Virus record (IMG/VR): IMGVR_UViG_3300027887_000463
Span: 9,371 to 73,370 of that record
DNA from: a virus
Length of the DNA stretch: 64,000 nucleotides
Direction: 5' to 3' (one strand)
Shown here: positions 8,994-64,000 of the stretch, piece after piece
How the letters are laid out: every line of letters begins with the position of its first letter
How positions within the stretch are numbered: position 1 is the first letter of the stretch
Position numbers and translations under genes: made by a program
The notes under the pieces: model-generated
Told to the model about the DNA's origin: nothing
What the model saw: the letters and a program-made list of their open reading frames with translations, nothing else
The model's database searches: none

Positions 8994-9437
8994 ATGACTA
9001 TGAGATCATTACAAGTATATCAGCCTAGCTCAGAGACAGGCTTATTGGAGATGAAGTTTCCTTCATCAATCCCTTCTGAAGTCAGTGGGGTTCAAACTCT
9101 GTTACAGAACATTGCCTTATTCCTAAAGACCACCCCTGGATCTGATTCTTTTGATCCTGAACGTGGTACTATATTGGGCGATCAGGCTGCGATGGCTAAA
9201 TCGTTTACCAATATGGATCAGGTTCGGGTATCGGTATCCGATGCAGTTGACCGTACACAATTATACATACTTACACAGCAACAAAAGCAGCGGGAAGCTG
9301 GACAATATATAGGCCCGGATGCCACACTTACAAAGCTGGAAGTCAACAATATTTATCAAGGAGACGATCCTACTTCCATTTTTGTGGAAATTTTAGTATA
9401 TACAGAGGGTAACAAACAATACTTCCTAACGGTATAA
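8994..9437 (+). CDS. baseplate wedge protein, GpW/gp25-like
   Basis: 147 aa. The segment FLKTTPGSDSFDPERGTILGD resembles the GpW/gp25 signature (T.pGe...P.fGs). It lies directly upstream of a J-like gene, as in P2/T4-type baseplate operons. Confidence 0.5.
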   Translation: MTMRSLQVYQPSSETGLLEMKFPSSIPSEVSGVQTLLQNIALFLKTTPGSDSFDPERGTILGDQAAMAKSFTNMDQVRVSVSDAVDRTQLYILTQQQKQREAGQYIGPDATLTKLEVNNIYQGDDPTSIFVEILVYTEGNKQYFLTV

Positions 9438-46265: not shown

Positions 46266-46294
46266 TTGACTTTTAATTGCTTTTTTCGTATCAT
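46266..46294 (+). promoter_or_regulatory. sigma70-like promoter TTGACT-17 nt-TATCAT of the RNAP gene
   Basis: TTGACT at 46266-46271, a 17-nt spacer, TATCAT at 46289-46294, then AAAAAGGTG and the ATG at 46314. The track ORF start (TTG at 46266) is the -35 element itself. Confidence 0.6.
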
Positions 46295-46313
46295 AGACAA
46301 AAAGGTGTACTAC

Positions 46314-49300: not shown

Positions 49301-52300
49301 CTCAGATGATATGTTAAAATGGTCTGCTGGCGAGCTTACAGATCCTGGTCATATGTTACGTGGAAAAGATCTTAGTGAAATTAAGGGTGGTTTATACGAC
49401 CCGAAATTAACGGGAGGGCTGCGAGGTACTAACTGGACCCACTTCAAACTAGAAGAGCCGATCCCCAATCCATTATATGAAAATGCAGTTAAGTCAATCT
49501 TAGGGCTAAATACACCTGCATTTGAACGTATCATCAATGAAGATGATAAAGATTCAAAGATGAAAGGTAACCAGCGTATAGCCAAAATGCTTTCGGATAT
49601 TGATATAGATGAAGAATTAGCCAAAGCTAAGGACGCCCTAAAGACAGCTGGACCTACACAAGTTAACACTTTGAACAAAAGGATTCGTTTCCTATCAGTG
49701 TTGAAGGAGCGTAATTTACGTCCTGAAAAAGCATATATGATGGAATTGATACCAGTACTTCCTCCAATTTATAGGCCAGTTTATCCATTACCTTCCGGAG
49801 ATACACAGAATTCTCCAATTAATTATCACTATCGTGACGTAGCTGTGTTGAATCAGTCTATAAAAGATATAAAAGCACAAGGTCATTTGATAGATGAGTT
49901 GGAACAGAACAGAAAGAATAGATCTGACTTATACAAATCTGTAAAAGCTTTAATGGGATTAGCAGAGCCCATCACCTTTACTACTCGTCAATATGAAGGA
50001 CTTCTTGGAACTCTTGCCGGAGATTCTCCAAAGCAAGGATTCATTCAGAACAAGTCCTGGTCGAAACGTCAAGATTTATCGGCTCGGTCCACGATCACAG
50101 TGGAACCTTCGCTCGGTATCGATCAAGTTGGATTGCCTGACGTCATGTTGAAAGATCTCTTTAAACCGTTTGTTATGAGAGAAATTGTACGCCAAGGTTA
50201 CAAACCAACTGAAGCCTTAGAACAGATAAAAACCTGGACTCCTGTAGCGGAACAAGCTCTGAATAATGCTATTAAACAGCGGCCCGTTATGCTTAACCGG
50301 GCACCATCTCTTCATAAGCATTCAGTACAGGCATTCTGGCCACAGAGATTTGAAGGACAAAGTATTCGTGTAAGTCCATTGACAGCAAAAGGATTTAACT
50401 TTGACTTTGATGGCGACACCATGTCAGTACACGTTCCTGTGTCTGAAAAAGCTGTGGAAGAAGCTAAAGGCATGCTGCCAACAAAGAATCTCTACAAAGC
50501 CGGCGATCGTCAGCATATGATTAATATTGAACAGGATTACCAGCTTGGTCTTTATTATTTATCACAGCTCGGAGCAGATACTGGAAAACGATTTTCTTCT
50601 ATTAGCAAGGCAATAAAGGAAGTTAAGGATCGTAATACTACCTTTACTTTAGATGGTAAAAAGATGAGTATCGGACAATGGGAAATTAACGACCCACTTC
50701 CTGATGCTTTGAAAGATTATACGCGACTCATGGATTCAAAAGCCGTCAAAGGTTTAGTAGATACATTATTTATGAAATATCCCGGTTATCTTGGAACTGT
50801 TATTGATACCTGGAAGGAGCTCGGAAGAAACTACGCAGTTCAAAGAGGTAGTACCGTGTCCATTACAGATATGGTCGTTGATCGCAGTTACAGGGATAAG
50901 ATCTTAAAAGATTATGAAGCTAAAATTAAGCCTGGTATGGATAAATATGAAGTCTCAAAGATCTATGGTGATGCTAAAGCTGAGATGGAAGAGGCTCAAG
51001 AAAAGCTTCTAAAGGGGAAGAACAACTTTTATGATATGTTACAAGCTGGAAGTACTTCGAAGAAGGGTCAGGTTACACAGATCCTTTCCATGCCGGGCAT
51101 TATGATGGACGTTCACGGAGAGCCAATTCCACATCCTGTAAAGAAATCTTGGTCAGAAGGTCTTGATACATTTGATTATTGGAACCAGTCTTATGGTGCC
51201 CGTAAAGGTGTTGTGGATCGTTCCGTTAATACTCAAGATTCTGGAGCTTTAAATAAAGAACTTCTATTTACTACTAAGAGTTTATTAGTTATTGAAGAAG
51301 ATTGTGGAACTCCAGAGGGTATTATATTAGATACTGATTCCAAAGAAGTTATGGATCGATTTCTTTCAAGTGATGTTCCGGGCGTTGGTAAGAGAAATGA
51401 TCTTGTTACAAATGAGCGTATGTTAAAAGCGAAAACAAAGAAAATAGAAAAACTTCCAGTACGATCATCTCTCACCTGTGAAGCTGAGGGCGGAGTTTGT
51501 CAGAAATGTTATGGCCTTATGGCAAACGGACAACTTGCTCGTATAGGAGAAAATGTAGGAGTTATTGACTCTGAGGCTGTTACTGAACGTTCTACTCAAT
51601 TACAAATGCAGACTTTCCATACTGGGGGTGTTGCAGGCGGAGGGGCAGCAGTAACATTAGGGTTCCCTAGATTGGAAGAGCTCTTGTATGTTCCACAGAA
51701 GATTCGAGACGCAGCGGTTCTTTCGCGAGAAGATGGTATTGTTACTCAAATTACAGAGAATCCAGCAGGAGGAAAAAATCTCTTCATTGGTCGTAGTGAG
51801 TACTATATTCCAAGAGAGAGACGTCTAGACGTTTCCGTCGGCTCTCGAGTAAAACGTGGTGATCGTTTAACAGATGGTTCCATTAAGCCACAGGAATTGT
51901 CGGAATTAAAAGAGCATCTTACAGCCCAGCAATATATAGCAGATGAAATCAATAAGATTTATGAGAATAAATTTGCAAGGAAAACTTTTGAAACCGTTTT
52001 ACGTGGTGTAGCAAATAATGCCGAAATAACAAATATTCCTGAAGAAGTAGAAGCAAGTGCTAATTTTATGCGGGGCGATACAGTACCGATAACTCGTGTA
52101 AAGAAATTAAATAGAGAGCTACTTGCTGAAGGAAAACCACAGATAGAATATAAGCCATTCTTTAAATCTATCTCTGTACTCCCATTACATAGTGACGATT
52201 GGCTAAGTAGATTAACAACAAACAGATTAAAACAAACTATCCAAGAGGCAGCTTCTATGGGTATGGAGAGCGATGTTAAGGGCACAGACCCGATGTCTGC

Positions 52301-52361
52301 TTATCTATATGGACTTGATTTTGGAAAAGATGTTGATCCAACAAAGAAGAAATTCTATTAA
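46314..52361 (+). CDS. fused beta-beta' multisubunit-type DNA-dependent RNA polymerase (single chain)
   Basis: The beta blocks come first: RDIHPTHLGFVDPLNTPESGKVG, LVPFLGHNSGNRALVAAKM, MPWHGYNYEDGIVV, RYGDKGIVTKI...GRMNMGQLLE and KLMHVVDHKYKARG. The beta' blocks follow: VLPPIYRPV, KRQDLSARSTITV, NRAPSLHKHSVQAF, NFDFDGDTMSVHVP, YGARKGVVDRSVNTQDSGALNKEL and TQLQMQTFHTGG. Confidence 0.9.
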   Translation: MVNKLDPGLQSKNIQEAIANVIKSQFPIQGRYQTLELVGPLTIQDDLDDQDFPAQREAKLSGRSWQVPVYGTFRLTDNKTGNVIDEAKDIKVANIPKLTDRFSMLIEGNEYTTMNQFRLKPGIYTRKKANDEMESQFNLAVGYNFKMMMDPADGIFYLYIGNQKFHLYTLLRAFGASENEMIKSWGNALFDKNKNAGLNEEGKEIPLMWEKLKRQKLPYEEALNALKDYFDKTRIDVDTTEITLGRGVDRVTPDALLLTSSKLLRVLRGDEPEDERDSLVFKDLYTVDDLVQKHIEKRAPNIQKNLLARTDHKQSIREIISPDTYTKDIKSFFTQGDLSNPSPQTNPVEMLGEWRKTTITGTGGIQSSHAITFKTRDIHPTHLGFVDPLNTPESGKVGVTLPLAMHVEKHGKDIKTRLVTPEGKDIFATPVEFYKMKVGFPDQHVEGKAKGTMIKAMYRGQSVVLPAKDIDAYILDPTSMFAWTTNLVPFLGHNSGNRALVAAKMVTQSVPLKAPETPLVKVVGQTGETLDSVLGTFLKPKVPKGFGTATVMKIDDDYIHIRNEKGDRHKVGLYKDFPLNQESFINSRVLVDIGQKVKEGEPLADTNFSDKSGNFAPGVNVNVAYMPWHGYNYEDGIVVTDSLSKRFTSTVMLKKNLQVGKDSILDLKKFVSYYPKELTVANIEKMDDTGVIKEGVRIEPGETLIAHLSKMDLTDTQKILKNMNRVLSNPYRNQSLTWDGENPGVVTHVRKVGNTYQIHVKEEQPLKVGDKLAARYGDKGIVTKIISDSEAPHTKDGNRIDMMVNIHGVVGRMNMGQLLEAAAGRIAMKTGKPFLVKNFADRDYLSDIMAEMKKLKLEPNETLLDGATGKPFEKPVFWGNKHYLKLMHVVDHKYKARGIPGSYDANEQPVHGEVGGQSVDPLQMYSYLAHGARENLYEFTAVKGQKNDEYWRALQLGLPPPPPQRNFVFDKFINYIKAAGVNVEKNGTRFKLFPATSDDMLKWSAGELTDPGHMLRGKDLSEIKGGLYDPKLTGGLRGTNWTHFKLEEPIPNPLYENAVKSILGLNTPAFERIINEDDKDSKMKGNQRIAKMLSDIDIDEELAKAKDALKTAGPTQVNTLNKRIRFLSVLKERNLRPEKAYMMELIPVLPPIYRPVYPLPSGDTQNSPINYHYRDVAVLNQSIKDIKAQGHLIDELEQNRKNRSDLYKSVKALMGLAEPITFTTRQYEGLLGTLAGDSPKQGFIQNKSWSKRQDLSARSTITVEPSLGIDQVGLPDVMLKDLFKPFVMREIVRQGYKPTEALEQIKTWTPVAEQALNNAIKQRPVMLNRAPSLHKHSVQAFWPQRFEGQSIRVSPLTAKGFNFDFDGDTMSVHVPVSEKAVEEAKGMLPTKNLYKAGDRQHMINIEQDYQLGLYYLSQLGADTGKRFSSISKAIKEVKDRNTTFTLDGKKMSIGQWEINDPLPDALKDYTRLMDSKAVKGLVDTLFMKYPGYLGTVIDTWKELGRNYAVQRGSTVSITDMVVDRSYRDKILKDYEAKIKPGMDKYEVSKIYGDAKAEMEEAQEKLLKGKNNFYDMLQAGSTSKKGQVTQILSMPGIMMDVHGEPIPHPVKKSWSEGLDTFDYWNQSYGARKGVVDRSVNTQDSGALNKELLFTTKSLLVIEEDCGTPEGIILDTDSKEVMDRFLSSDVPGVGKRNDLVTNERMLKAKTKKIEKLPVRSSLTCEAEGGVCQKCYGLMANGQLARIGENVGVIDSEAVTERSTQLQMQTFHTGGVAGGGAAVTLGFPRLEELLYVPQKIRDAAVLSREDGIVTQITENPAGGKNLFIGRSEYYIPRERRLDVSVGSRVKRGDRLTDGSIKPQELSELKEHLTAQQYIADEINKIYENKFARKTFETVLRGVANNAEITNIPEEVEASANFMRGDTVPITRVKKLNRELLAEGKPQIEYKPFFKSISVLPLHSDDWLSRLTTNRLKQTIQEAASMGMESDVKGTDPMSAYLYGLDFGKDVDPTKKKFY

Positions 52362-52404: not shown

Positions 52405-52770
52405 CTACTCCAGCGGCTCGCCCATCCCAAATGATCCTACCCACAGCCTTTCTCCTCCACCAAAAGACATCTCGAAGCAATCCGAGTGTACCTTCTTTAG
52501 AAGAGCCGACATCTCCCAGCCGTATACAAGAATAAGATGCTTCACGTGCTTCATCGCATCTGCACTTGTTTTACCCGCAATTACATCTTCTACGGTGACT
52601 GTGAAATAGTCTGCCTGGGCTGCTTCATTGGGAATCGTAGCAAACGCCTCAAGATCAGGATTCGTAATTAGAATCTGACCTTTGGATGGAGAAACTGTAT
52701 AAATCTCTCCATAAGGCGTTCTACTATACATGCCCAGCGGCTGATTATTGAAATCAACTAAATAGATCAT
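52405..52770 (-). CDS. hypothetical protein
   Basis: 121-aa ORF with an ATGA overlap to the upstream gene. Confidence 0.5.
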   Translation of the reverse strand: MIYLVDFNNQPLGMYSRTPYGEIYTVSPSKGQILITNPDLEAFATIPNEAAQADYFTVTVEDVIAGKTSADAMKHVKHLILVYGWEMSALLKKVHSDCFEMSFGGGERLWVGSFGMGEPLE

Positions 52771-53732
52771 TCTCCGAGTTTCACTGCACTCCAGATGGTT
52801 TCGAAGGAAAGGGCTGTTCCCTTCTTCGGACCAATTGTCTGAACCTTGAGGTTCTTCCAGCTGGCATCACCATCTGCTTTACGTTCCTGTGTGTTGAGTT
52901 CCTTTACGTTAGGATACGTATAGGGCTCAAGCTGTTCATTGTAAAGATTGGAGTTTACAATTGTGACATAGTGCTTCACGGAATTATAAACTTTTCTCAT
53001 TAACACAACACGAACAGCACCAGGATTGGTCTGGAAGTATAGCTGGGCGATAAGATCATCGCTTCCATAGCGATCTGACTCGATGAGGATCAAAGCAGAA
53101 AGATCGTTATGAAAAATCACATCATACTTGAGATTTGGATAGTTTCGTTCGACTGCTTCCATTTCTCCAATATGTGTATGCCAGTAGTCTTCCTGATCTG
53201 TCAGATAATGCCAGCAGGATTCGGTCCTTGGCTTTCCAGGAAGATCCTTAAATGGAAAAGGAAATTCATTGAGAAAGTTATTCAAAAGCCTTGGACGTTG
53301 CTGTTTAACGAAGGTGTACTTGTCCGCAGTCCACTCCGAAAGCTCCCCAATCAATGCGGAAAGCTTGGTGCCAGAAATCAGCACGTCTTGACGAGTTTCT
53401 GATTCCAGCAAAACTGCAGCCAGAGAATCGTCGGGAGTGATGTCATAAATCGGACGATACAACACGGGCGGTTCCCATTTGGGGTTGTGAGTCATAAATG
53501 AGAACGCCTGGCCAGCGATTGACATCAAACTGGCACGCTCTTCCGGCTTGTGCAATCTCTGCACACCGAAAGTTACTGCCTTGAGCGTGGGATAGAAACG
53601 AAATTGAGGAAACCCATCCTTTGTCAAGGTTCCGGCATTCGTAATATTCAGCCCGATAATGGCAGTATTTGGAGCGACCTGTATATTGGTCAACTCGCTG
53701 TTATCCTTGGCATTGAGAAATATAACTTTCAT
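52767..53732 (-). CDS. hypothetical protein
   Basis: 321-aa ORF with SD AAGGAG upstream of the ATG. Confidence 0.55.
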   Translation of the reverse strand: MKVIFLNAKDNSELTNIQVAPNTAIIGLNITNAGTLTKDGFPQFRFYPTLKAVTFGVQRLHKPEERASLMSIAGQAFSFMTHNPKWEPPVLYRPIYDITPDDSLAAVLLESETRQDVLISGTKLSALIGELSEWTADKYTFVKQQRPRLLNNFLNEFPFPFKDLPGKPRTESCWHYLTDQEDYWHTHIGEMEAVERNYPNLKYDVIFHNDLSALILIESDRYGSDDLIAQLYFQTNPGAVRVVLMRKVYNSVKHYVTIVNSNLYNEQLEPYTYPNVKELNTQERKADGDASWKNLKVQTIGPKKGTALSFETIWSAVKLGE

Positions 53733-53767
53733 GTGAGAAAGCTCCTTTGTAAGATTTATGAAAAGCT

Positions 53768-53789
53768 ATGGCGGGAATAGTCCCGCCAT
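53768..53789 (-). terminator. terminator-like hairpin after the Clp gene
   Basis: ATGGCGGGA-ATAG-TCCCGCCAT forms a 9-bp stem. On the - strand it is followed by AGCTTTTC, a weak U-tract. Confidence 0.45.
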
Positions 53790-53791
53790 TA

Positions 53792-55960
53792 TTATTTGTT
53801 CACAACGACAACCTTTCCGTCGACCAGTTGAACTTCAAATGACCTTGCATCTGGATTCTCCAGAAGAAGATCTGCCATCTTTGATTCAACTTCCTTTTCA
53901 ATCAATCGACGCATTGGTCGAGCACCATATTCCGTAGAGTAGCCCTTTTCCAAGAACCAGTCTTCGGCTTCTGGTGTAAAGCTCATCGTAAACCGTTCGT
54001 TGATATCGTTTACCATAAGCTTCATGATCTGTCTCATACTGTCCTTATCGAGACGATTAAAGGTAACAATCTCGTCAAGGCGGTTGAGAAACTCCGGCTT
54101 GAAAAAGCTCTTCAACGCCGCCTTAAGATTCTTCTTCATATCATCATCTGCTGATGTTTCAGAGAATCCAAGGTTACGTTTTCCGGCGCTCTCAACACCG
54201 ATGTTTGACGTGATAATGATAATAGTATTTTTGAAACTGACAACCCTCCCTTGAGAATCAGTCAGAATACCATCATCAAAAATCTGAAGAAGCACATTGA
54301 ATACATCCGGATGCGCTTTCTCTATCTCATCAAACAATACAACTGAATACGGCTTCTTACGAACTTTCTCTGTAAGCTTTCCACCGCTATCATCGTATCC
54401 GATGTATCCCGGAGGAGCTCCGATAAGCGAAGAGATGGTGAACCGATCAAAGAATTCACTCATATCCAAACGAATCATTGCCTGTTCCGAATCAAACAGA
54501 TATCTAGCCAACTGTCTGGCCATCTCTGTTTTTCCAACCCCAGTAGGTCCAATGAAGAGGAAGGTGCTTGGGCGTTTATCGCTTTTGACACCGGTGCGTT
54601 TCCGTTTAATTGAGTTGGATACAGCTTGAATAGCATCTGGCTGTCCAACCAATCTTCCAGAAAGATCGGTATCAATGTGCTTTAACTTTTCCCGTTCCGA
54701 CTTATTGAGATTGGTGATAGGAACACCGGTTGTCTTCGAAACTACTCCTCGAATGATATCATTGTCGACCTGGACTGTGCCAGCGAGTTTTGCGACTGCC
54801 GCAGCTTCATCCAAAACGTCAATGGCTTTATCAGGAAGGAAACGATCCTGAATATAGCGTTCGGTGAGTTCAATAATGGTTGGAATAGCTTCCTGTGGAA
54901 TTTCCACCCCGTGATAAAGTTCATAGACATATTTGATTTGGCCGAGAATCTGTGCGGTTTCCTCCAGGGTTGGTTGCTCAATCATCACCTTCTGAAATCT
55001 CCGCTCCAACGCTCCATCCTTCTCGACATGCTTGCGAAATTCATTGGCAGTAGTTGCGCCAATGCATTTAATGTATCCACGTGATAGTGCCGGCTTGATG
55101 ATGTTTGCAGCATCACCAGTTCCCTCAGTACCTCCCGTACCCATAAGGGAATGCATCTCATCGATAAACAGAATGATATCAGGATTCTTCATCAGTTCCT
55201 TGATAATCATCTGCATCCTCTGCTCGAATTGTCCCCTGTACTGCGTTCCCGCAATAATGGAGTTGATGTCAAGTGAAAGGATTCTTTTGTTGAGAAGCAT
55301 TTTGGGAACATTACCCGCAGCGACGCGCATTGCCAGACCTTCGACAATAGCGGTCTTTCCCACGCCTGGCTCACCGATCAACGCAGGGTTGTTCTTCTTC
55401 CTGCGTGCTAGGATCTCGATGACACGTGAGATTTCGGATTCGCGTCCGATGACCGGATCTAACTTATTCTCCTGAGCCAGAATCGTCAGATCCATCGAAA
55501 AAGCATTTAGTGCCGGAGTGTTTTGTGAACTTGTCCGATCACTTGATACCTTTTTCTTTGGTTCTCCGACTTCAGTGTAGCCAACTTCATTGAGCATCTT
55601 GGACGCTACACTGTCTGGTGTACGATAGAGACTGTGAACTAAAGCATCTGCTTCTATTGTTCCGGTTATCGATATGAACTTGGCGAAGTTCAGAATATAA
55701 CGCATCGAATTCGAAACTTTCGGAAGAGGGTTCGTTACTGCAATATCCCTCTGTATTACACGGAATCGATCCGACAAGAGTGTACGAAGTTTACCAATGT
55801 TTGCCCCATTCTTGTTTAAAAGCGTAAGGCCTTCGTTATCACCTTGCTCCACGATTGCAAAAAGTAAGACTTCACTGGAAATTGTATCTTGGTTAAGCTC
55901 CGTCGCTTTCTTTCGAGCTAATCCAAAGATTTCCTCTGTCTTTGTTGAATACTGATTCAT
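53792..55960 (-). CDS. ClpA/ClpC-type two-ring AAA+ unfoldase
   Basis: It has a Clp_N-like N-domain. NBD1 carries GEPGVGKTAIVEGLA and ILFIDEMHSLMG. NBD2 carries FIGPTGVGKTEMARQLA, VVLFDEIEKAHPDVFNVLLQIFDDG and GARPMRRLIE. There is no long ClpB-type middle domain. I set the start at the ATG at 55960 (AAAAGGAG-6 nt-ATG), not the track start at 56017. Confidence 0.85.
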   Translation of the reverse strand: MNQYSTKTEEIFGLARKKATELNQDTISSEVLLFAIVEQGDNEGLTLLNKNGANIGKLRTLLSDRFRVIQRDIAVTNPLPKVSNSMRYILNFAKFISITGTIEADALVHSLYRTPDSVASKMLNEVGYTEVGEPKKKVSSDRTSSQNTPALNAFSMDLTILAQENKLDPVIGRESEISRVIEILARRKKNNPALIGEPGVGKTAIVEGLAMRVAAGNVPKMLLNKRILSLDINSIIAGTQYRGQFEQRMQMIIKELMKNPDIILFIDEMHSLMGTGGTEGTGDAANIIKPALSRGYIKCIGATTANEFRKHVEKDGALERRFQKVMIEQPTLEETAQILGQIKYVYELYHGVEIPQEAIPTIIELTERYIQDRFLPDKAIDVLDEAAAVAKLAGTVQVDNDIIRGVVSKTTGVPITNLNKSEREKLKHIDTDLSGRLVGQPDAIQAVSNSIKRKRTGVKSDKRPSTFLFIGPTGVGKTEMARQLARYLFDSEQAMIRLDMSEFFDRFTISSLIGAPPGYIGYDDSGGKLTEKVRKKPYSVVLFDEIEKAHPDVFNVLLQIFDDGILTDSQGRVVSFKNTIIIITSNIGVESAGKRNLGFSETSADDDMKKNLKAALKSFFKPEFLNRLDEIVTFNRLDKDSMRQIMKLMVNDINERFTMSFTPEAEDWFLEKGYSTEYGARPMRRLIEKEVESKMADLLLENPDARSFEVQLVDGKVVVVNK

Positions 55961-56361
55961 AGTACTCCTTTTGTGAATAAAATTTGGAAGGCTGCGATCC
56001 GCAATCCTTGATAACATACCGTCCGATTATTAGGCCATCGGGGCCTATTATCATTCCTACTATTCCATACTGCTACCTGATCACGAAACGTAACCCTGGA
56101 ATGGGAAATGCATTCCGCGATTGGGATGACAACCTTCCCTTGAAAGGGATAACCTGGCCAGGACTAGAGCTTCTCCACAGCCCCTTTGCTAGGGTAGGGC
56201 CGTGTGTCTGAAAAGTACAGATACCCCTCCCCAGGTCCTTTGCCTGGGCGTTAGGGCTCATCAAAAGTCGAAGCGACTTTCTATAGCTTGATAGCTTCTT
56301 CAAACCAAATTGGCCGAAGAATCCTCATGCGCCCACCTCTACTCGTAGCCAAGCTCCCTAA
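55961..56361 (-). other. long GC-enriched, hairpin-rich intergenic leader (candidate structured RNA)
   Basis: About 400 nt without a credible ORF in an otherwise gap-free genome. Several 6-bp-stem hairpins are present (for example TAGGCC-ATCGG-GGCCTA at 56031-56047, GGAATG..CATTCC ~56098-56116 and CCCAGG..CCTGGG ~56230-56248). Confidence 0.3.
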
Positions 56362-56529
56362 TTACTTCTTATCCTCAAGCTTCTTCAGAATCTTCATCCG
56401 CTCTTTTGTTGCGCCCGAGTCTTTTCCCAGTTTTCCGTCCAGACGATTCAGTCGGTCTGAAAGGGTCAACTTCTCGTACAATTCCTGGCGGACCTTCGCT
56501 TCTTCCTGCTTCTGTTTCCGGCTTTTCAT
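56362..56529 (-). CDS. candidate 55-aa coiled-coil protein in an alternative frame of the phosphatase tail
   Basis: GAGGT-8 nt-ATG at 56529. Product MKSRKQKQEEAKVRQELYEKLTLSDRLNRLDGKLGKDSGATKERMKILKKLEDKK. It looks more protein-like than the overlapping phosphatase tail (…PETEAGRSEGPPGIVREVDPFRPTESSGRK…). Confidence 0.35.
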   Translation of the reverse strand: MKSRKQKQEEAKVRQELYEKLTLSDRLNRLDGKLGKDSGATKERMKILKKLEDKK

Positions 56530-57226
56530 ATGATATTACCTCGACTTGATTTCCGTCTAGTTTAACAACTTGTTTTGTGAATTGAAGGCAGTCGATATCC
56601 CAATTGGAACCTTTTTGTTTTATCTTTGTGACCGGTGTATGGCCAAAGATCTGGGTTAATCCTTCCACGGGATTGAAGTCAACAGCAAAGTCAGACCAAA
56701 ATATACCTGCGTTTTGATCCACTCCCCCACGACTCATTCCAATGTTATATACTAACCCATCATCTACAGATCTCCAGGATTCTTGTAAAAAGAATTCAAT
56801 CAAATCAATGAAATCTTCTCTCTCATAGAGATCGGGGGTAGTTTCGAATGCCTCTCGAAGAAGCTGTGAATTAAGCCCTGCGTGTGTGATGAGTACCTTA
56901 TTTTCCTTATCCAGAATAAAAGGTTTCATCAGTTTCCACATACGGCTTTTTAATGCTATGATTTTTGCGTCGAAACTTGATGCATATCCCGAACACCGCA
57001 TACGCCTCATGAGATACGATAGCTCATGATTACCAAAAACACATTCAGTGGTTCCTCGTTCAATATCATTTAGAACCAACTCTAGAAGCTTGAACTGTTC
57101 TGTTCGTGAAAAGTAAAAGGAATCGAGCAGATCTCCAGTTAAAATCAGCTTCTCTTTTGTTGAACTCTTTACTTCGTGATAGAAGTTGATCTCACCATGG
57201 AGATCTCCGATTACGATTGCTTTCAT
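56375..57226 (-). CDS. calcineurin-like metallophosphoesterase (lambda Ser/Thr phosphatase type)
   Basis: Motifs IGDLHGE, TGDLLDS, FGNHE, ITHAGL and IFGHTP occur in the canonical order. The last ~48 codons may not be genuine (see the ORF at 56362). Confidence 0.75.
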   Translation of the reverse strand: MKAIVIGDLHGEINFYHEVKSSTKEKLILTGDLLDSFYFSRTEQFKLLELVLNDIERGTTECVFGNHELSYLMRRMRCSGYASSFDAKIIALKSRMWKLMKPFILDKENKVLITHAGLNSQLLREAFETTPDLYEREDFIDLIEFFLQESWRSVDDGLVYNIGMSRGGVDQNAGIFWSDFAVDFNPVEGLTQIFGHTPVTKIKQKGSNWDIDCLQFTKQVVKLDGNQVEVISYEKPETEAGRSEGPPGIVREVDPFRPTESSGRKTGKRLGRNKRADEDSEEA

Positions 57227-57711
57227 CGATTAAAATAATCCTCGTTGTGCCACTCTGGTGGTTTTCTGTTTGTCCATCTTTTGTCTATGTGCTTTTTTCC
57301 ATAAAAATAATACTTTCTATAAGCCCAAATGGTGTTGCCAAATTTATATTCATCTGGCATACATTTTGGAGGAGAGGAAAATCCTATAATCGGTATATCT
57401 TTTGGAAGGCGCTGAAGAAGCCACATAGGCTCGCTTGTTTTATGATGCTTACCATATCTGTGGTTGTATTCGGATAATAGCCACTGCCCATACTCCAGCA
57501 ACCACTGGTAATTTTGGCCAGAAGTTCGCGCCCATATGGCACACGGATGATTTTTATGTGTCGGTTGGTACATCCCCCGTTTCCACGAACCCAGTTCAGA
57601 ATGTGCAGTGCTGAGCAGCTGTGCAGTCTCTAAAATCATCTTTACTACATGCTTATCACACAGCATTGCTGCACATGTTTTAGGATCTCGTGCAAGGTAG
57701 AAAATGTTCAT
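57223..57711 (-). CDS. conserved hypothetical protein (MNIFYL..DP...AA....DKHVVKM.LE.AQ.L family)
   Basis: 162-aa ORF. I recall the N-terminal pattern as recurrent in phage and giant-virus proteins, but I cannot assign a function. Confidence 0.5.
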   Translation of the reverse strand: MNIFYLARDPKTCAAMLCDKHVVKMILETAQLLSTAHSELGSWKRGMYQPTHKNHPCAIWARTSGQNYQWLLEYGQWLLSEYNHRYGKHHKTSEPMWLLQRLPKDIPIIGFSSPPKCMPDEYKFGNTIWAYRKYYFYGKKHIDKRWTNRKPPEWHNEDYFNR

Positions 57712-57718
57712 CTAATTC

Positions 57719-58036
57719 TTATACCTTAAATGGGCCATCTCCATTGTTGGCATCTCCCTCAAACATCTCTCCAGAGAACTCTTCTCCGGGAGCGGCGCCC
57801 TGCATTTCCGGACTTACTTCGGCAGCCTTAAGCTCGGCTTCGATGAATTTCTGCATATCTCCGCCCAGTTTTCCTTCGGGATCCTTTTCTGTTAGAATCG
57901 AGCAGAAAGCATCGACAATTTCTGCAGGAATAATTGGAGGACATAGAACCATTGGAGAGGCTTCTAAGGCAGCTTCGGGGTTACCCCACGCAACCATACG
58001 AACATCCCCATCTGTTACAACAAAATATTTATCCAT
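57719..58036 (-). CDS. hypothetical acidic protein
   Basis: 105-aa ORF, rich in D/E. It lies directly downstream of the terminator hairpin at 58045. Confidence 0.5.
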   Translation of the reverse strand: MDKYFVVTDGDVRMVAWGNPEAALEASPMVLCPPIIPAEIVDAFCSILTEKDPEGKLGGDMQKFIEAELKAAEVSPEMQGAAPGEEFSGEMFEGDANNGDGPFKV

Positions 58037-58044
58037 GTAAATAA

Positions 58045-58066
58045 AAGGGCACGGTTAGGTGCCCTT
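58045..58066 (-). terminator. rho-independent terminator overlapping the Pnkp-like stop codon
   Basis: AAGGGCAC-GGTTAG-GTGCCCTT. On the - strand it is followed by TTTTATTTAC. The TAA stop (58055-58057) sits in the loop. Confidence 0.6.
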
Positions 58067-60223
58067 CTCCTTGTAATACATATTTCTCAATGTGATGATA
58101 TCTCGTGATAGCTCTTCTTCAGTTCTGGTTTTGAGCCAGGCATAGAAGTAGTTGGCTTCGGGCGTAACCAATCCCGAGAGATTCACCTGTCGTCTTGCAC
58201 GAACAGCATCCTTCACTACACGCATATGTTTCCAGAAGTTGTAGTAAGGGAGCTTAAGCTTCATCATAAAGCCATTGGAATCCTCAAAGACAAATCCCTC
58301 GATATCCGAGGTAGTTGCCGTTTCACATTCCTTATAGAATTGAAGAAGCTCTTCCTTCGAGTTCAGAGTCTTATACAATTGCTTCGAGCGATGTGGCATA
58401 TTCAGTGAATGGGCAAATGCCAGCATCTCCTGATATGGCAACTTCTCGTAGTCAAGTGTTCTCCGCACTGCATCCAGAAGAACTAATCCCTGTCTGTCGG
58501 GATATGCAATGATATGAGGATCGGTATCTTGATCAACTACTTCGAAGACAAGAGTGACGTTGTGTCCCTTGAGAATTGCTTTGAGATAATCCGGATCTAC
58601 GTTTGTGGTTAATGCCCACACACGCTTGAAGATGTCCGGATAGATTCCCTCAACAGAACTCTTGGAAAGGAAGAGAACCTGATCGGAAGCAGTATCATAA
58701 CCGACCATACCCAGGAATCCATTATACTTCTCGTACACATGGACAGGATATTGAAGGTTAACCGTTTCAATCTTAGTCTCATCTCTTTCGTTCACATTGA
58801 AAAACTTATTATATGAACGAGCCACAATTTCATTTGTCACCGTATTGACGAACAGTCCTCTGGCTTTTACTGTCATTCCATCCCAAATCTTCTTGTAGAA
58901 CGCACCACGGTTGAAGTTAAACGAGGAGATATCTCCGAACTTGCGCTCATTGATGTGTCTGCTCTTCCTTAAATCCTCCACGAACGAGGAAGGACCGAGA
59001 GTGGTTTCCACTTTTATATTTTTTGGACGAAATACAGTATTCGGAATCTCCCATGTCTTGATCTCCAAAGAATCACGATAGAGAGTAACAGCCCGAAGAT
59101 TTCCTCCGAACTCAATGTTACCCTGCAGATTATAATACTTTGGGTTGATCTTTATAGGCGATTCCGTAACGTTTCTATGGCCAGATATCTGGATGGCATC
59201 CGGCGGAGAATTCTTCTCCCACGATTCAGCAACCTCCAGCATATCTTCATAGCGTCCCACACCTTTGATAAATTGTTCGGTAGCAATTGTGATGAGGTCT
59301 TCAGGGAGCTTAGAGATGCCTCCGTGGGTTACCAGAACGAGCTGATTTCCCAAACGGAAATATGCAACCTGAGCAAACTTCCTACACAACTGCCGTACGG
59401 ATCCCTTATCCAAAGCTGCGGACTCGAGTTCTCTTTTGGTTTGGAAAAGGAATTCATTGGAACGAATCTTTTCCTCTTCCTGGTTGGCCCAGTATCTCAA
59501 CCACCGCTCGTGATTCCCCTCCAGAAGAAGTATATTAGGCTTTTCATAATTCTCGATAAGCCAACGTACCACCTCGGTATTCTGAATCCCACGATCGATA
59601 AAATCACCAACAAAGATGTAATAGTGATTTTCGTGATAGCCAACTGCATCGAACCACACTTTCAGCGGTTCATAACATCCGTGAATATCTCCGATAATGT
59701 GCACCTGTTCATATTCAAATGCAAGCGGTGCATAATCAAAGACGCCCATATAGTCAGCCGGCTTGACAACCTGGACATAACCAGGAACCGGTTGACTCTT
59801 TAGTCGAGCTTCGATATTATCGAGCACAAATTCCGGAACCCACTTATATTCCGGACGGGTCTTATTCTGAAGTTTGCATTGTTCCAGAGGAACATCGGAG
59901 AAGTCGATACAATAGATACGGTATCGATACTCTCCTGCCAACTTCTTATACTTGGCAAAATCGCTGGCCTTGGAGTGAGTAGCATCAATGAACACCAGTT
60001 CTCCGCGTTCCATGCGAGTTTCCAACATTTCGAATAGAAGTCCCCAAACCTTTCGGTCATTCTCCGGGCTAATCGCGTACACTCCCTTAGGAGTAAGTAC
60101 CGGCGCCTGGAGTTGGAGACGAATGTCATCAGCGCACAATGTGTAAGGGCGCAGGCCTTCCTGTTCGAGCCAGGTAGACTTTCCGCATCCGACATTACCG
60201 CGGAGAAGATAGAGGTGTCTCAT
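58055..60223 (-). CDS. polynucleotide kinase-phosphatase with C-terminal ligase-like domain (Pnkp-like RNA repair enzyme)
   Basis: The N-terminal P-loop is RGNVGCGKST. The central metallophosphatase has IGDIHGC, VGDFIDRG, EGNHE, VTHGGI and SGHRN. The C-terminal part carries the nucleotidyltransferase motif I-like YEKYNGFLG. This order matches bacterial Pnkp. Confidence 0.65.
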   Translation of the reverse strand: MRHLYLLRGNVGCGKSTWLEQEGLRPYTLCADDIRLQLQAPVLTPKGVYAISPENDRKVWGLLFEMLETRMERGELVFIDATHSKASDFAKYKKLAGEYRYRIYCIDFSDVPLEQCKLQNKTRPEYKWVPEFVLDNIEARLKSQPVPGYVQVVKPADYMGVFDYAPLAFEYEQVHIIGDIHGCYEPLKVWFDAVGYHENHYYIFVGDFIDRGIQNTEVVRWLIENYEKPNILLLEGNHERWLRYWANQEEEKIRSNEFLFQTKRELESAALDKGSVRQLCRKFAQVAYFRLGNQLVLVTHGGISKLPEDLITIATEQFIKGVGRYEDMLEVAESWEKNSPPDAIQISGHRNVTESPIKINPKYYNLQGNIEFGGNLRAVTLYRDSLEIKTWEIPNTVFRPKNIKVETTLGPSSFVEDLRKSRHINERKFGDISSFNFNRGAFYKKIWDGMTVKARGLFVNTVTNEIVARSYNKFFNVNERDETKIETVNLQYPVHVYEKYNGFLGMVGYDTASDQVLFLSKSSVEGIYPDIFKRVWALTTNVDPDYLKAILKGHNVTLVFEVVDQDTDPHIIAYPDRQGLVLLDAVRRTLDYEKLPYQEMLAFAHSLNMPHRSKQLYKTLNSKEELLQFYKECETATTSDIEGFVFEDSNGFMMKLKLPYYNFWKHMRVVKDAVRARRQVNLSGLVTPEANYFYAWLKTRTEEELSRDIITLRNMYYKEKGT

Positions 60224-60690
60224 TATGACTTCCTTAACATAGTTAAGATTTGATTTCCTTCTCGTTTTGGAGTATCCATTGCGAAATGGGTTAGTTCTGC
60301 TTTTATTTTTTCGAGTAATTCAAATCCCTGTTCGGGACGAGTTATTTCTCGACCATGAAAGCGAACTATCAAACGAATAGGATGTCCCTTTTCGAGTAGT
60401 TCATTGATATGCCGAGCTTTTGTTTGAAGATCATGGTCGGCAATATTAATATTGAATCGAAACTCTTTTAGATCTGGCGCAGGTTTCGTCTTATGCGCTT
60501 TTTTCTGTTGATACTGAAACTTCTCAAAGTCTTGAATCTTGCAGACACCGCGCCCAACTTCTACAAGATCCAAACTCCTTGTATGTGCTAATTTTATAGC
60601 CTCGGTCGTAGCTAGAGTTCCGAGATTATTTCCGTTCTCGTCAATAACAAGAACGGGAGTGTCCGTGATCTGATTATTTACACGGTTCAA
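60223..60690 (-). CDS. infC: translation initiation factor IF-3 homolog
   Basis: 155 aa and collinear with bacterial IF3. The N-domain reads VLVIDENGNNLGTLATTEAIKLAHTRSLDLVEV...VCKIQDFEKFQYQQKK. After a basic linker the C-domain reads KEFRFNINIADHDLQTKARHINELLEKGHPIRLIVRFHGRE. Confidence 0.8.
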   Translation of the reverse strand: MNRVNNQITDTPVLVIDENGNNLGTLATTEAIKLAHTRSLDLVEVGRGVCKIQDFEKFQYQQKKAHKTKPAPDLKEFRFNINIADHDLQTKARHINELLEKGHPIRLIVRFHGREITRPEQGFELLEKIKAELTHFAMDTPKREGNQILTMLRKS

Positions 60691-61051
60691 GTTCGATCTT
60701 CTCCAATGATTGGATATTTGTGTATGCGTAAAAGGTACCTAGTTTGGTACCCGTATCTTTGAAACATAGTTTAATCTTTACACTATGCGCAGATTCATAG
60801 AACGGCATTGTATACCCCAGTAACTCTAGCTGAGTTCCCGCAGGTAGAAGCAGTTGTCCGTTTCTAGGTATTCCGTATTGACCTCTGTGTACATTGGGAT
60901 CTGGAGTGAACATATTTCCAGCAAAAGTACTCACTCGCTTCTGTGCGTAACTTGTGGAGAGTTCTATTGAGACCAACTGGTCTTTTATTACAATAAACTC
61001 TCGCTTACCCTCAAAAAAATTGAATCTCATTTTAAAGACCAATCTAACCAT
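60674..61051 (-). CDS. hypothetical protein
   Basis: 125-aa ORF that overlaps both neighbours. Confidence 0.5.
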   Translation of the reverse strand: MVRLVFKMRFNFFEGKREFIVIKDQLVSIELSTSYAQKRVSTFAGNMFTPDPNVHRGQYGIPRNGQLLLPAGTQLELLGYTMPFYESAHSVKIKLCFKDTGTKLGTFYAYTNIQSLEKIELEPCK

Positions 61052-62025
61052 TTCGGATTACGTACATACCAGTTGACTGTTTTGCTGAGACATTCTTCAA
61101 ATTCCATTGGAATCTTCCAGCCCATATTTTCCATCTTGGTTCCGTCCAGAGCATAGCGTAAGTCATGTCCTGGCCTCGATGAATGAAAGTCAACTAGTTC
61201 GTATTTTAGTTCTTTCCCAAGGATGACGGCAATATCATGTGCCATATCCAAGTTACTAACCTCTTTTTCTCCTACAATATTAAACTTATCACCATTGTCT
61301 GTATGAGAGTTCAGAAGAAAGTGAATAGCTGATGCAACATTTCTTGCATGGATATAAAATCGTGAGCCAGATTTTGTTCGTTCTGGATTAGAGTGTATTT
61401 CAATAGTTCGTCCAGCAAGAATATCAATAATACATTTGGGTATGAATTTTTCTGGGTGTTGTCGTTCTCCAAAAACATTCATTGTGTGGGTGATGATGAT
61501 GGGAAGTTTGTAGGTATTTTCATACGCTATACAAAGCTCTTCTCCGCCCGCTTTAGTAGCTGCATAAGGATTTTTTGCATTGTAGCGATCCCATTCCTTA
61601 AAAGCTATACCTTCGGGTGCCGGTCCAAAAACCTCATCTGTAGAAAAGTAAATCATTTTCTCTAGATGCCGTAGATTTCGAGCAAACTCTAAAATCTCTA
61701 AGGTCCCCACTACGTTTGAATAAACAAAGCGTCGTGGTTCGGTTATTGAGTTATCTACGTGTGTCTCTGCACCCAGATGTAGAATGTAATTTACATCGCC
61801 GATTTCATTGAGTAGCCCCTCATTTATGGGCTTCGTAAAATCCGCAGTAAAGGTAGTTACACGCTTATCATCATACACGTTAATATCGCGTAACCGATTG
61901 AATCCATGTGAAGCATATGTTAATTTATCGAATACGACTATGCTCCAGTCAGTATTTTTCAGAAAATGTTCTACGATGTGGTGCCCGATGAAACCAGCAC
62001 CACCCGTAATTAAGATTATTGGCAT
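61027..62025 (-). CDS. NAD-dependent sugar-nucleotide dehydratase/epimerase (dTDP-glucose 4,6-dehydratase-like SDR)
   Basis: ILITGGAGFIGHH (Rossmann GxxGxxG), DKLTYASH, HLGAETHVDNSI, FSTDEVFG and YAATKAGGE (the YxxxK catalytic motif) occur in RmlB-like order. Confidence 0.7.
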   Translation of the reverse strand: MPIILITGGAGFIGHHIVEHFLKNTDWSIVVFDKLTYASHGFNRLRDINVYDDKRVTTFTADFTKPINEGLLNEIGDVNYILHLGAETHVDNSITEPRRFVYSNVVGTLEILEFARNLRHLEKMIYFSTDEVFGPAPEGIAFKEWDRYNAKNPYAATKAGGEELCIAYENTYKLPIIITHTMNVFGERQHPEKFIPKCIIDILAGRTIEIHSNPERTKSGSRFYIHARNVASAIHFLLNSHTDNGDKFNIVGEKEVSNLDMAHDIAVILGKELKYELVDFHSSRPGHDLRYALDGTKMENMGWKIPMEFEECLSKTVNWYVRNPKWLDWSLK

Positions 62026-62369
62026 AGATTAAGAAGAAGGCCCTGTTCGTCTTCATCCGCATTGCGGCATATAGCGCCTTCAAAAACCCTCATGTTAAAA
62101 GTTTTGGGACGAACATTTAATTCCGGTCTCGGCCCATTGTAATCGAATCGTTCAAGGAGAGCTGCGAGATTTATACGAATCTGCATACGCACTGCCAGAC
62201 GTTTCGTAGCACGAGCTTCTCCCTCTAAATATATACGGTATTTACTCAACGTCTTGTGGCGTTGCATTTCACTCATAAGCCTCACTTCATCCGCAATATG
62301 GTTAAAATAAGGCTGTAAAATTTCATTGACCACCTTGACTGATGGTTCAATGGCAGGCAACTTTGTCAT
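62016..62369 (-). CDS. hypothetical protein
   Basis: 117-aa ORF that overlaps the downstream SDR gene by 10 nt. Confidence 0.5.
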   Translation of the reverse strand: MTKLPAIEPSVKVVNEILQPYFNHIADEVRLMSEMQRHKTLSKYRIYLEGEARATKRLAVRMQIRINLAALLERFDYNGPRPELNVRPKTFNMRVFEGAICRNADEDEQGLLLNLCQ

Positions 62370-62407: not shown

Positions 62408-62437
62408 AAAAAAAATGAGGGGGAGTTTATCTCCCCC
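62408..62437 (-). terminator. rho-independent terminator of the SPFH gene
   Basis: On the - strand, hairpin GGGGGAG-ATAAA-CTCCCCC (plus-strand coordinates 62419-62437) is followed by TCATTTTTTTT. Confidence 0.65.
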
Positions 62438-62443
62438 ACATTA

Positions 62444-63637
62444 CTACTTCTTTGGAATTGAAAGGTCGAGTGCCAAATCCTTGGCGGTCTTGACTGAGAG
62501 CATATCAATCAAAGCCGTTGCGGAATTATAGCTACCCTTACCAGCACCGCTTCCCTCAAAAATCACATCAGGAACCCACTTCTGTTTGCCAATGTTTTCG
62601 GCAAAAGCAGTCATGACCGCCTGATAGGTTTCCAACTTCTGGGTCAAGGCACCATCAGCAATAATGATCTTACGCTTGTATTCAGCATCAGCTTCAGCTT
62701 CGAGAATTCTCTTCTGCTTATACTGACCGGCTGTTTTGGTTTCAAGCGTAGCAACTTCCAGCTTCTGCTGGGCTTCTGTTACCATCTTGGCCTTGATTAC
62801 TTCCTGTTCCCATTTGGCTTTTGCGGCTTCTGCACGACCATTCTGTTCCGCGGTAATCGCTTGCTGTTCAGCTTCGCGAGCCTTTGCGGAGGCAGTTTGA
62901 ATCTGCATAATTGCCTGTTGCTGAGCCTGGATCTGCTTCTCAACGTTTTCGTCGTAGCCAACGTTATTGATCGAAAGGTTGAAAGTCTTTACTCCAAAAA
63001 CTGCAAGAGGAGATTCATCCTGCCGTTCAAAGGTGCCATCCTTACCTTTCAATACGTCAACAACCGTGAGAGTACGTGGAGAACCAGATAGAGGATCCTT
63101 ATCTTGAACCTGATATGAACGGGTCTTATAAACCCCATTCTCGATCTGGTCTTCGATAAAACGGATTAACTCATTCCGGCGTTCAGCATAAGACTCTTTT
63201 GACGACATAAGAGGGCCAGTCATATAGACTGATTTCTCTACGATCGTTCGTACGAGTTGCTGCTCAATGGCCTGCTGGCTTCCATACTTGGTATGAAGCA
63301 TAACCAAATGCTGTTCATCCACAGGCATTTCCCACGCAATTGATCCAGAGACACTGCCATGACCACCATCATTGAATCGAACTGAGATGGCCTGATTCAT
63401 TTCTGTTCCCTGATCATCTTTTTCTGAGAACCAGAATTGGGATCGCTTTTGATACTTGGTGACTTTGCCGAAACCCTGCCACTTGAAATTTCCAGGAGTC
63501 ATGTGCCAGGTGAGATCTCCCGAAAGAGACTGAACCACCATGATCTCGTCGGCGTCGTTACTTTCGAAAATGTTGAAACTTGCAAAGATCAGAACGATCG
63601 CAAGAATGGCAACGGCTCCGAGGCCGAAGATCTTGCG
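62444..63637 (-). CDS. SPFH/band-7 (prohibitin-like) membrane protein; 5' end unresolved or truncated at the junction
   Basis: An N-terminal TM helix ([23 protein letters not shown]) is followed by an SPFH-like core and a long A/E/Q/K coiled coil. No start codon lies upstream of the TM helix before the sequence turns into GC-rich foreign DNA. The track's 518-aa ORF is a read-through artefact. Confidence 0.6.
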
Positions 63638-63670
63638 ACCCGCGTCGAGCTCGGCGGGCGGCGGTTCCTG

Positions 63671-64000
63671 CGCCGTTCCGGCCGCGGCGCGTTCGTCACA
63701 CGCCTTGCCGACGGCCGGCCGCTCGGCGTGATCAACGCGATGGGCCGGGTCTTCATGCCGCCGGTCGACAATCCGTTCGAGGCGGTCGCCGCCGCCGTCG
63801 ATCGCCTGTCGCGCGAATCCCGCGTCATCGTCGTCGACATGCACGCGGAAGCCACGGCCGAGAAGATCGCGATGGGCTGGCACCTCGATGGCCGCGCGGC
63901 CGCGCTGGTCGGCACGCACACCCACGTGCAGACCGCCGACGCCCGCATCCTTCCAGGCGGCACGGCGTACATCACCGATGTCGGCATGACCGGGCCGCAC
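63671..64000 (+). CDS. internal fragment of a YmdB-like metallophosphoesterase (2',3'-cyclic-nucleotide phosphodiesterase family), bacterial, truncated at both ends
   Basis: The + frame reads ...[18 protein letters not shown]...[57 protein letters not shown]. This matches the YmdB signature DFHAEATSEK...[24 protein letters not shown]. The DNA is very GC-rich, unlike the rest of the window. Confidence 0.7.

Follow-up and report, generated by a model that had tools for sequence, protein, structure and literature searches.

A 64,000-nucleotide stretch of the IMG/VR virus record IMGVR_UViG_3300027887_000463 (positions 9,371 to 73,370 of that record; hereafter the window) carries on its minus strand, at 60223..60690, an open reading frame (ORF) of 155 amino acids that resembles bacterial infC, and it raises the question whether a phage here encodes a genuine translation initiation factor 3 (IF3) and, if so, how such a protein would act on the ribosome of its host. 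An initial annotation, made from the sequence letters, had called the product an IF3 homolog; its coordinates proved exact, the strand having been left unstated, and the ORF list, profile hidden Markov models (HMMs) and a sequence search of the PDB all uphold the identification. The gene runs from a TTG start (60690-60688) to a TAA stop (60225-60223). The HMM search that the annotation had proposed finds both Pfam domains above their gathering scores: IF3_N (PF05198) covers residues 4-68 (60487..60681, minus strand) with E 8.3e-19 and 68 bits against a cut-off of 26.9, and IF3_C (PF00707), the ribosome-binding domain, covers residues 74-153 (60232..60471, minus strand) with E 6.7e-21 and 74.5 bits against a cut-off of 34.8. 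The NCBIfam equivalog TIGR00168 (infC) scores 119.6 bits against a cut-off of 60, aligning residues 2-152 with model positions 5-165 of 170, and PHROG 9787 ('translation initiation factor') matches at 3.7e-29; scores so far above the cut-offs of the IF3 models place the match beyond chance. In the PDB, bacterial IF3s rank best (Geobacillus/Thermus, 1.8e-23; E. coli, 3.9e-18) and are collinear with the phage protein over its whole length.

The domain arrangement originally read from the letters (an N-domain, a basic linker and a C-domain with an RFHGRE block) likewise holds. The lysine-rich segment YQQKKAHKTKPAPDLK connects the two domains, and the interdomain linker (residues 55-73; 60472..60528, minus strand) is modelled as a helix (residues 55-66 by DSSP) followed by KTKPAPDL. 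The RFHGRE block (residues 110-115; nucleotides 60363-60346) aligns with E. coli 129-RFRGRE-134; within it the RFHGR motif proper (residues 110-114; 60349..60363, minus strand) corresponds to E. coli 129-RFRGR-133 with the central Arg changed to His. The annotation had named a structure incompatible with the two-domain IF3 fold as grounds for dropping the claim; an AlphaFold2 model built from 95 homologs (mean predicted local distance difference test score, pLDDT, 89.2) instead predicts that fold, with the topology β-β-α-β-β, linker helix, then β-α-β-α-β-β. In a Foldseek search of the PDB the top 25 matches of the model are all IF3 or mitochondrial IF3, and single-domain superposition gives root-mean-square deviations of 1.4 Å for the N-domain on 1tif, and of 1.3 Å and 1.7 Å for the C-domain on 2m71 and 1tig. 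The product of 60223-60690 is a genuine, phage-borne, two-domain orthologue of bacterial IF3.

The gene lies in a phage genome. A PHROG search recovers a portal-like gene and a baseplate-wedge gene (PHROG 6) from the window, giant ORFs of 3241 and 1070 amino acids are present, and a single plus-strand ORF of 2015-2031 amino acids (46266-52361) encodes a fused β/β' RNA polymerase with Rpb2-like and Rpb1-like domains that is kept in all long relatives; its nearest cultured matches, at 29% identity, are in the 187-kb Vibrio phages D181, D148 and D69, where they are annotated as hypothetical. The identical IF3 protein, with the same neighbours, occurs on six contigs from different sequencing runs, and as far as position 63638 these contigs and the window are 100% identical. 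Reference 30 of PMC7329831 lists five of the six source runs under 'Wetland surface sediment Feb 2011' (the sixth, SRR404225, is not listed), and the 103.7-kb IMG/VR viral contig Ga0315273_10000044 carries a relative of 78% identity. Among 185,579 species-representative genomes the IF3 has no close relative: a scan with the alignment of the phage IF3 clade described below gave only a Flagellimonas infC at 35% identity and thus no prophage or host clue. Phage records searched at the DNA level with the region yielded no related genome, the sole match being the epimerase gene upstream of IF3. The phage genes, the identity across six contigs, the relative on a viral contig and the lack of any relative among reference genomes together dismiss host contamination for the IF3 gene. 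A host infC might have been swept in by misassembly or at a prophage boundary, as could be suspected from the foreign high-GC join in which the window ends and from records, such as that of Vibrio phage Va_90-11-286_p16, that hold a host thrS-infC-rpmI-rplT cluster; this explanation is effectively refuted by the location of the gene, which lies 2.9 kb within sequence shared at 100% identity with six independent contigs, by its overlap with phage genes on both sides and the absence of rpmI or rplT neighbours, by synteny across relatives down to 46% identity, and by the absence of the clade from the 185,579 reference genomes.

A homolog search returned 203 homologs, among which the window protein belongs to a phage IF3 clade of 19 sequences, all from metagenomes, 154-170 amino acids long and 46-100% identical, that is monophyletic in 95.5% of 200 neighbour-joining bootstraps. 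The IF3s of phages 121Q, Atu_ph07/Phosso and LR756501/04/11 are placed outside this clade in the neighbour-joining tree, which indicates that phages have captured IF3 several times independently. Between clade members synonymous sites are saturated (proportion of synonymous differences, pS, 0.71-0.95; of nonsynonymous differences, pN, 0.14-0.29), for which reason pN and pS are given in place of dN/dS for most pairs, the single computable dN/dS being 0.10; low pN against saturated pS reflects purifying selection. Cellular homologs such as P0023, P0028 and P0045 carry infC-rpmI-rplT, and the phage copy lacks the thrS-infC-rpmI-rplT context, as expected for a captured gene. Within the explanation favoured below, the clade is the outcome of one capture by a lineage of tailed, RNA-polymerase-encoding sediment phages, which retained IF3 as a core gene. 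The neighbour-joining sister group consists of Dojkabacteria-like (candidate phyla radiation, CPR) cellular IF3s in a normal thrS-infC-rpmI-rplT context, at 38.5% bootstrap; with that support, and because it may reflect long-branch attraction, a CPR donor is not claimed, and the affinity may be either a lead to the donor or host or such an artefact.

Residues were compared between 16 clade members and 97 other homologs, using E. coli numbering. The core of the protein is kept: N16, I19, G31, G35, A42, A46, D52-L-V-E-V, C65-K66, K72, Y75, K79, K86, K94-E95, H/D106, K110, G121, G132-R133-E134, G141 and E166-G167. The clade also has departures of its own. The N-domain hairpin P-N-A-x-P-P has become G-R-G, giving a loop (VEVGRGVC in the window protein) four residues shorter; it has five residues in 16/16 core clade members, as compared with 8-9 in E. 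coli and in every one of the 105 other homologs. Between the equivalents of Y75 and K94 lie 14 residues in 15 of the 16 clade members, versus 18 in 74 of the 97 others, and the clade linker holds a conserved K-P-A-P. Further departures are G71 to E, Q or K (E in the window protein), F117 to L and K123 to P. Most distinctively, E. coli R99, R131 and R168 correspond to N80, H112 and N146 in the window protein, so that the 129-RFRGR-133 motif is not intact, with R129, G132 and R133 kept and His in place of R131; mycoplasma IF3s also deviate in this motif (PMC11775629), and membership in the IF3 family is thus not excluded, though the change is a functional departure. At position 131, 15 of the 19 clade members carry H, V, F, Y or L, and 95 of the 97 non-clade homologs carry R or K. 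Counted over the three positions together, nine of the 19 clade members have no basic residue (Arg or Lys), eight have one, two have two and none has three, whereas among 104 cellular-like homologs the corresponding numbers are 0, 12, 34 and 58. R25 to L and R116 to E were also considered as phage-specific changes and were rejected, both being found in cellular IF3s with a thrS-infC-rpmI-rplT context (e.g., P0028). As a separate observation, the Dojkabacteria-like IF3s (P0045, P0049, P0057, P0061, P0063 and P0073; L034 4616-5125) share some odd states with the phage clade: K123 is replaced by Pro, the linker has 16 residues, and R99 and R168 are non-basic.

The three arginine positions are those at which IF3 approaches the start codon and the anticodon stem. 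In the Thermus 30S pre-initiation complexes, Arg91 forms a hydrogen bond with the first base of the start codon (A+1), Arg123 together with Gly124 makes contact with U+2 and with the nucleotide at +4, and Arg159, in the β-hairpin, is next to the anticodon stem; fidelity falls when Tyr75, which touches the platform, is mutated (PMC5037330). By the PDB-search alignment Thermus Arg91 is E. coli R99 and Arg123 is R131; Arg159 is probably the equivalent of R168, judging from the multiple alignment and the residue numbering. The RFRGR motif is highly conserved, with R131 touching positions +2, +3 and +4; the E. coli R131P mutant initiates more at non-AUG codons, on leaderless mRNAs and with the 3GC-mutant initiator tRNA, mycoplasmas naturally have P, F or Y at position 131, and the mitochondrial KKGK form of the motif relaxes discrimination (PMC11775629). 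Shortening of the linker leads to incorrect start-site decoding (PMC8266586), and the contact of the N-domain with the tRNA elbow adds to fidelity (PMC9723500).

Taken as a whole, the explanation that we favour, and consider rather probable, is that the phage has captured a working IF3, which may proofread more loosely than the IF3 of its host. During infection a weak TTG start, coupled in translation to the ORF g125 upstream of it, would give rise to the protein, which would bind the host 30S subunit in the usual way: the equivalents of D106, K110, G132, R133 and E134 would anchor the C-domain on h44/h24/h45 beside the P site, the linker would lie with the Y75 equivalent on the platform, and the N-domain would sit at the elbow of the initiator tRNA. 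Host IF3 would thereby be supplemented or replaced, subunits would be kept apart and recycled, and 30S initiation complexes would form faster on phage mRNAs. That the phage protein binds the host 30S subunit and acts in anti-association, recycling and initiation-complex formation is predicted with fair confidence. N80, H112 and N146, together with the linker shorter by four residues, suggest, with lower confidence, that its codon-anticodon proofreading is less strict than that of host IF3, which would tilt initiation toward phage cistrons that have weak Shine-Dalgarno (SD) sequences or non-AUG starts, are re-initiated or are leaderless. The initial annotation had proposed that a phage IF3 could bias the choice of start codons or of leaderless mRNAs in favour of the phage, and the missing arginines near the codon, R131 included, lend this proposal indirect support. 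The fullest form of this proposal is tentative: the protein may be a natural 'loosened' IF3, which by shedding three arginines and shortening linker and hairpin would displace host IF3 on the 30S subunit with a lowered proofreading barrier, and might so move initiation to phage messages with weak or absent SD sequences, overlapping re-initiation sites or leaderless 5' ends.

Several points weigh against looser proofreading. Arg is kept at position 131 in four of the 19 clade members, and where His stands there it may partly replace Arg; R99 and R168 are each variable among cellular IF3s, and 11 of the 97 non-clade homologs also have linkers as short as 14-16 residues. About 86% of window genes start with ATG, and an SD sequence of at least 4 nucleotides precedes 19 of 44 genes versus 12% of control sites; with starts and SD sequences this ordinary, nothing in the genome visibly demands relaxed proofreading. 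The window contains no tRNA genes, and thus no phage initiator tRNA.

The plus-strand structural genes (293-35675) have mostly weak SD sequences or none (e.g., taagg, aggat), and the minus-strand block around IF3 (52405-62369) often has AAGGAG. The IF3 gene is the only well-supported gene in the window that starts with TTG, a start shared by about six of ten lineages, the rest using ATG. TTG is a weak start and gives a weak hint of dosage control; it is not of the AUU type, nor a codon that IF3 is known to reject strongly, and it is not evidence for autoregulation of the infC kind. A GGAG element resembling an SD sequence (60701..60704, minus strand) lies 10 nucleotides upstream of the TTG, inside the end of g125, and is retained 8-10 nucleotides upstream of the IF3 start in relatives. 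No part of the window matches an RNA family of Rfam, and there is thus no element like the infC or L20 leaders; a scan for sigma-70 promoters stood at background (23 found versus 21.5 expected), and no promoter is therefore claimed.

The IF3 gene stands in a string of minus-strand genes between two terminator-like hairpins. The first, with a T-run (62419..62437, minus strand), ends the preceding Band_7 gene and is likely the upstream boundary of the transcription unit; the second (53768..53789, minus strand) follows the ClpA/B-like gene and is likely its downstream boundary. Read along the minus strand from the hairpin at 62437-62419, the order is g117, epimerase, g125, IF3, Pnkp-like ligase and g105, then a pyrimidine-dimer glycosylase, a metallophosphoesterase, the ClpA/B-like ATPase and the hairpin at 53789-53768. 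The first gene past the upstream hairpin, g117 (117 amino acids; 62016..62369, minus strand), is a conserved upstream neighbour. The NAD-dependent sugar epimerase/dehydratase (61027-62025, minus strand) has 65-70% DNA identity to the cyanophage Synechococcus phage ACG-2014f and to marine single-cell viral contigs, and it is absent from four relatives (L007, L008, L010 and L012), as befits a mobile accessory gene. The ORF directly upstream, g125 (118-125 amino acids; 60674..61051, minus strand), has no family match, overlaps the IF3 start by 17 nucleotides and is found in most relatives, being absent in L008. Small, acidic g105 (105 amino acids; 57719..58036, minus strand) is a conserved downstream neighbour and stands directly after IF3 where the ligase is absent. 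Neither g125 nor g105 matched Pfam or PHROG even at E<=1, homologs of both are few, and the AlphaFold2 model of g105 (pLDDT 54) is unusable.

Directly downstream of IF3 lies a Pnkp-like RNA repair enzyme of 722 amino acids (58055..60223, minus strand; Pfam AAA_33, Metallophos and RNA_lig_T4_1; PHROG 8238), composed of a P-loop kinase, a metallophosphoesterase and an Rnl1-type ligase and 37-45% identical to proteins of SPbeta-like and Staphylococcus Twort-like phages. The initial annotation had placed IF3 in an operon with this enzyme; the physical adjacency stands, since the IF3 stop and the ligase ATG share one base (TAATG), and the linkage itself is not conserved. The ligase follows IF3 on relatives L007 (IF3 78% identical to that of the window) and L030 (62%) and is nearby on L033 (46%); it is absent from L012/L028 (73%), L008 (66%), L029 (64%), L010/L031 (62%) and L032 (50%), where a g105 homolog follows IF3 instead. 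About four of ten related lineages thus have the ligase after IF3, and about six of ten keep IF3 without it. Around IF3 the ligase, epimerase, glycosylase, phosphoesterase and g125 are variable, and g117, g105, the Clp-like ATPase and the RNA polymerase are, with IF3, constant; the persistence of IF3 while its neighbours vary makes it a core gene of the lineage with a function independent of the ligase. The last gene before the downstream hairpin encodes a ClpA/ClpB-like double-AAA+ ATPase (53792..56017, minus strand; Pfam Clp_N, AAA, AAA_2 and ClpB_D2-small; PHROG 4871); in relative L012 a single small gene separates it from IF3 (L012 6212-9493). Clp components adjoin IF3 in independent phages as well: ClpS follows IF3 in 121Q and Turkey5, a ClpX-like ATPase precedes IF3 in Atu_ph07 and Phosso, and in the present lineage the ClpA/B-like gene lies one to four genes downstream. 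Three huge-phage loci have no obvious Clp-like neighbour, as judged by inspection of ORF N-termini without a profile search, and the recurring proximity could be either coincidence or a translation/proteostasis module.

Other explanations for a phage IF3 at this locus have to be weighed against a captured factor with looser proofreading. The protein could be a plain dosage supplement, equal to host IF3 and serving to keep IF3 levels up after host transcription, and infC with it, is shut off, with the loss of arginines a matter of neutral drift. Its equivalog-level scores with the IF3 models, its conserved binding core, the variability of R99 and R168 in cellular IF3s and the ordinary start-codon and SD usage of the phage are all consistent with this, and the phage's own RNA polymerase fits host shut-off. 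Neutral drift, however, does not sit well with position 131, which is highly conserved and fidelity-critical (R or K in 95/97 non-clade homologs) and yet non-basic or His in 15/19 clade members, with the fact that not one of the 104 cellular-like homologs lacks all three basic residues, or with a change that is clade-wide and persists amid strong purifying selection elsewhere in the protein; we regard simple supplementation as unlikely.

Changes at sites conserved in bacteria (G71 to E/Q/K, F117 to L, K123 to P, the hairpin deletion and the short linker) could also be taken as marks of a ribosome-capture or host-shutoff factor, which would hold the IF3 site of the 30S subunit, release poorly or not at all, and block host initiation or sequester subunits with partners such as g117 and g105. 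These two small ORFs (117 and 105 amino acids) are always linked to IF3, and early targeting of ribosomes is known from infections by other jumbo phages (cited in PMC11895373). Such a role is improbable: both domains fold normally in the model and all core contacts are kept, so that there is no sign of a loss of function, a total block of initiation would hit phage mRNAs too, and the neighbouring ORFs have no recognisable fold or family. The gene string itself suggests a counter-defence spare part, that is, a module in which IF3, the tRNA-repair enzyme and the Clp-type ATPase would repair or replace parts of the translation apparatus hit by abortive infection; IF3 adjoins the Pnkp/Rnl1-type enzyme and shares its gene string with the ClpA/B-like ATPase, and elsewhere it stands beside ClpS (121Q, Turkey5) or beside a ClpX-like gene (Atu_ph07, Phosso). 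The ligase, however, is missing in about six of the ten lineages that retain IF3, the huge-phage IF3 genes that were examined have no Clp neighbour, and we know of no defence system that targets IF3; this role appears very improbable.

Several other features of the window are recorded here. The 3241-amino-acid ORF (17566-27291, plus strand) is probably a fibre gene and contains internal direct repeats of 70-152 nucleotides with 69-78% identity. A reverse transcriptase of 294 amino acids (40479-41363, minus strand; Pfam RVT_1 4e-23; PHROG 2825) is not accompanied in the window by template/variable repeats of the diversity-generating retroelement (DGR) type, all long repeats lying inside the fibre ORF; it may serve a DGR whose target lies far away, a retron-like element or a defence function. 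At 42663-45380 (minus strand) a MoxR-type AAA+ ATPase (bpMoxR, 1.4e-46) adjoins a protein with a von Willebrand factor A (VWA) domain (PHROG 24053), forming a MoxR-VWA pair. In the last 362 bases (63639-64000) the GC content rises from about 0.45 to 0.71 and the plus strand encodes a fragment of a YmdB-like phosphoesterase (Pfam 8.3e-45); contigs L001 and L003 are identical to the window only to 63638, after which L003 runs on with different phage sequence, and the tail of the window has the look of sequence from a high-GC bacterium joined on by chimeric assembly. The 518-amino-acid 'ORF' at 62444..64000 is accordingly an artefact, the real Band_7/SPFH gene having about 412 amino acids.

Comparison with known IF3s places the phage protein among them and sets it apart. 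It shares with the bacterial factors of Geobacillus, Thermus and E. coli (PDB 5me0, 5lmn, 8jsg, 1tif and 1tig) the same two domains, Lys-rich helical linker and fold, at 30-35% identity; it differs in being phage-borne, in its length of 155 residues without an N-terminal tail and in having no rpmI-rplT neighbours, and E. coli infC starts with AUU where the phage gene starts with TTG. Mycoplasma IF3 (P/F/Y), E. coli R131P and mitochondrial KKGK all have the central arginine of RFRGR replaced, as in the clade, with F and Y common to clade and mycoplasmas; the terminal extensions of mitochondrial IF3 are absent from the phage protein. In mycoplasmas and mitochondria, moreover, non-AUG starts are enriched, whereas no such enrichment was detected in this phage, for which we infer the relaxed function. 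IF3 copies annotated in jumbo and huge phages (Asteriusvirus 121Q, Sharanji and Turkey5, Agrobacterium phage Atu_ph07, Sinorhizobium phage Phosso, and LR756501/04/11) also match PHROG 9787, and those of 121Q and LR756501 have Ser at position 131 and so likewise lack R/K there. They are separate captures, however, 27-35% identical to the present clade, with R25, a 9-residue hairpin and a long linker all still present, for which reason a common convergence of all phage IF3s was rejected. Their genomes measure 348-735 kb, whereas the longest contig of this lineage is 103.7 kb and its distant RNA-polymerase relatives are about 187 kb.

Phage IF3 genes are not new: earlier reports describe them from huge phages (PMC7162821), from the jumbo phages of 'group 2.2', Atu_ph07 among them (PMC7824862), and from 121Q-like phages (PMC11895373), and genome papers have listed such genes from the time of 121Q and the 'huge phage' survey onward. 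The remark in the initial annotation that initiation factors are rare in phages and mostly reported from very large ones is borne out, as 70 of 50,697 records in the phage collection match IF3 and the genuine cases are jumbo or huge phages. Several of the 70 are host DNA, so that counts of 'phage IF3' from such collections are inflated; in the Va_90-11-286_p16 record (L025, MK672802.1 21820-30308) thrS-infC-rpmI-rplT lies between two integrase genes, and MT835497.1 (L024) is high-GC, bacterial-looking sequence.

The clade described here was captured independently of the phage IF3s already known, and its lineage-specific variation merits biochemical test. As far as current contigs show, capture of IF3 is not limited to phages above 200 kb. 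The clade comprises a compact IF3 of 155 amino acids under purifying selection, whose differences fall on features that set fidelity (R131, R99, R168 and linker length). If its proofreading is indeed relaxed, the protein would be an example of a virus using a modified host factor to retune start-site selection, and the clade would offer, with H, V, F, Y, L and R at position 131, a natural series of variants for the study of IF3 proofreading.

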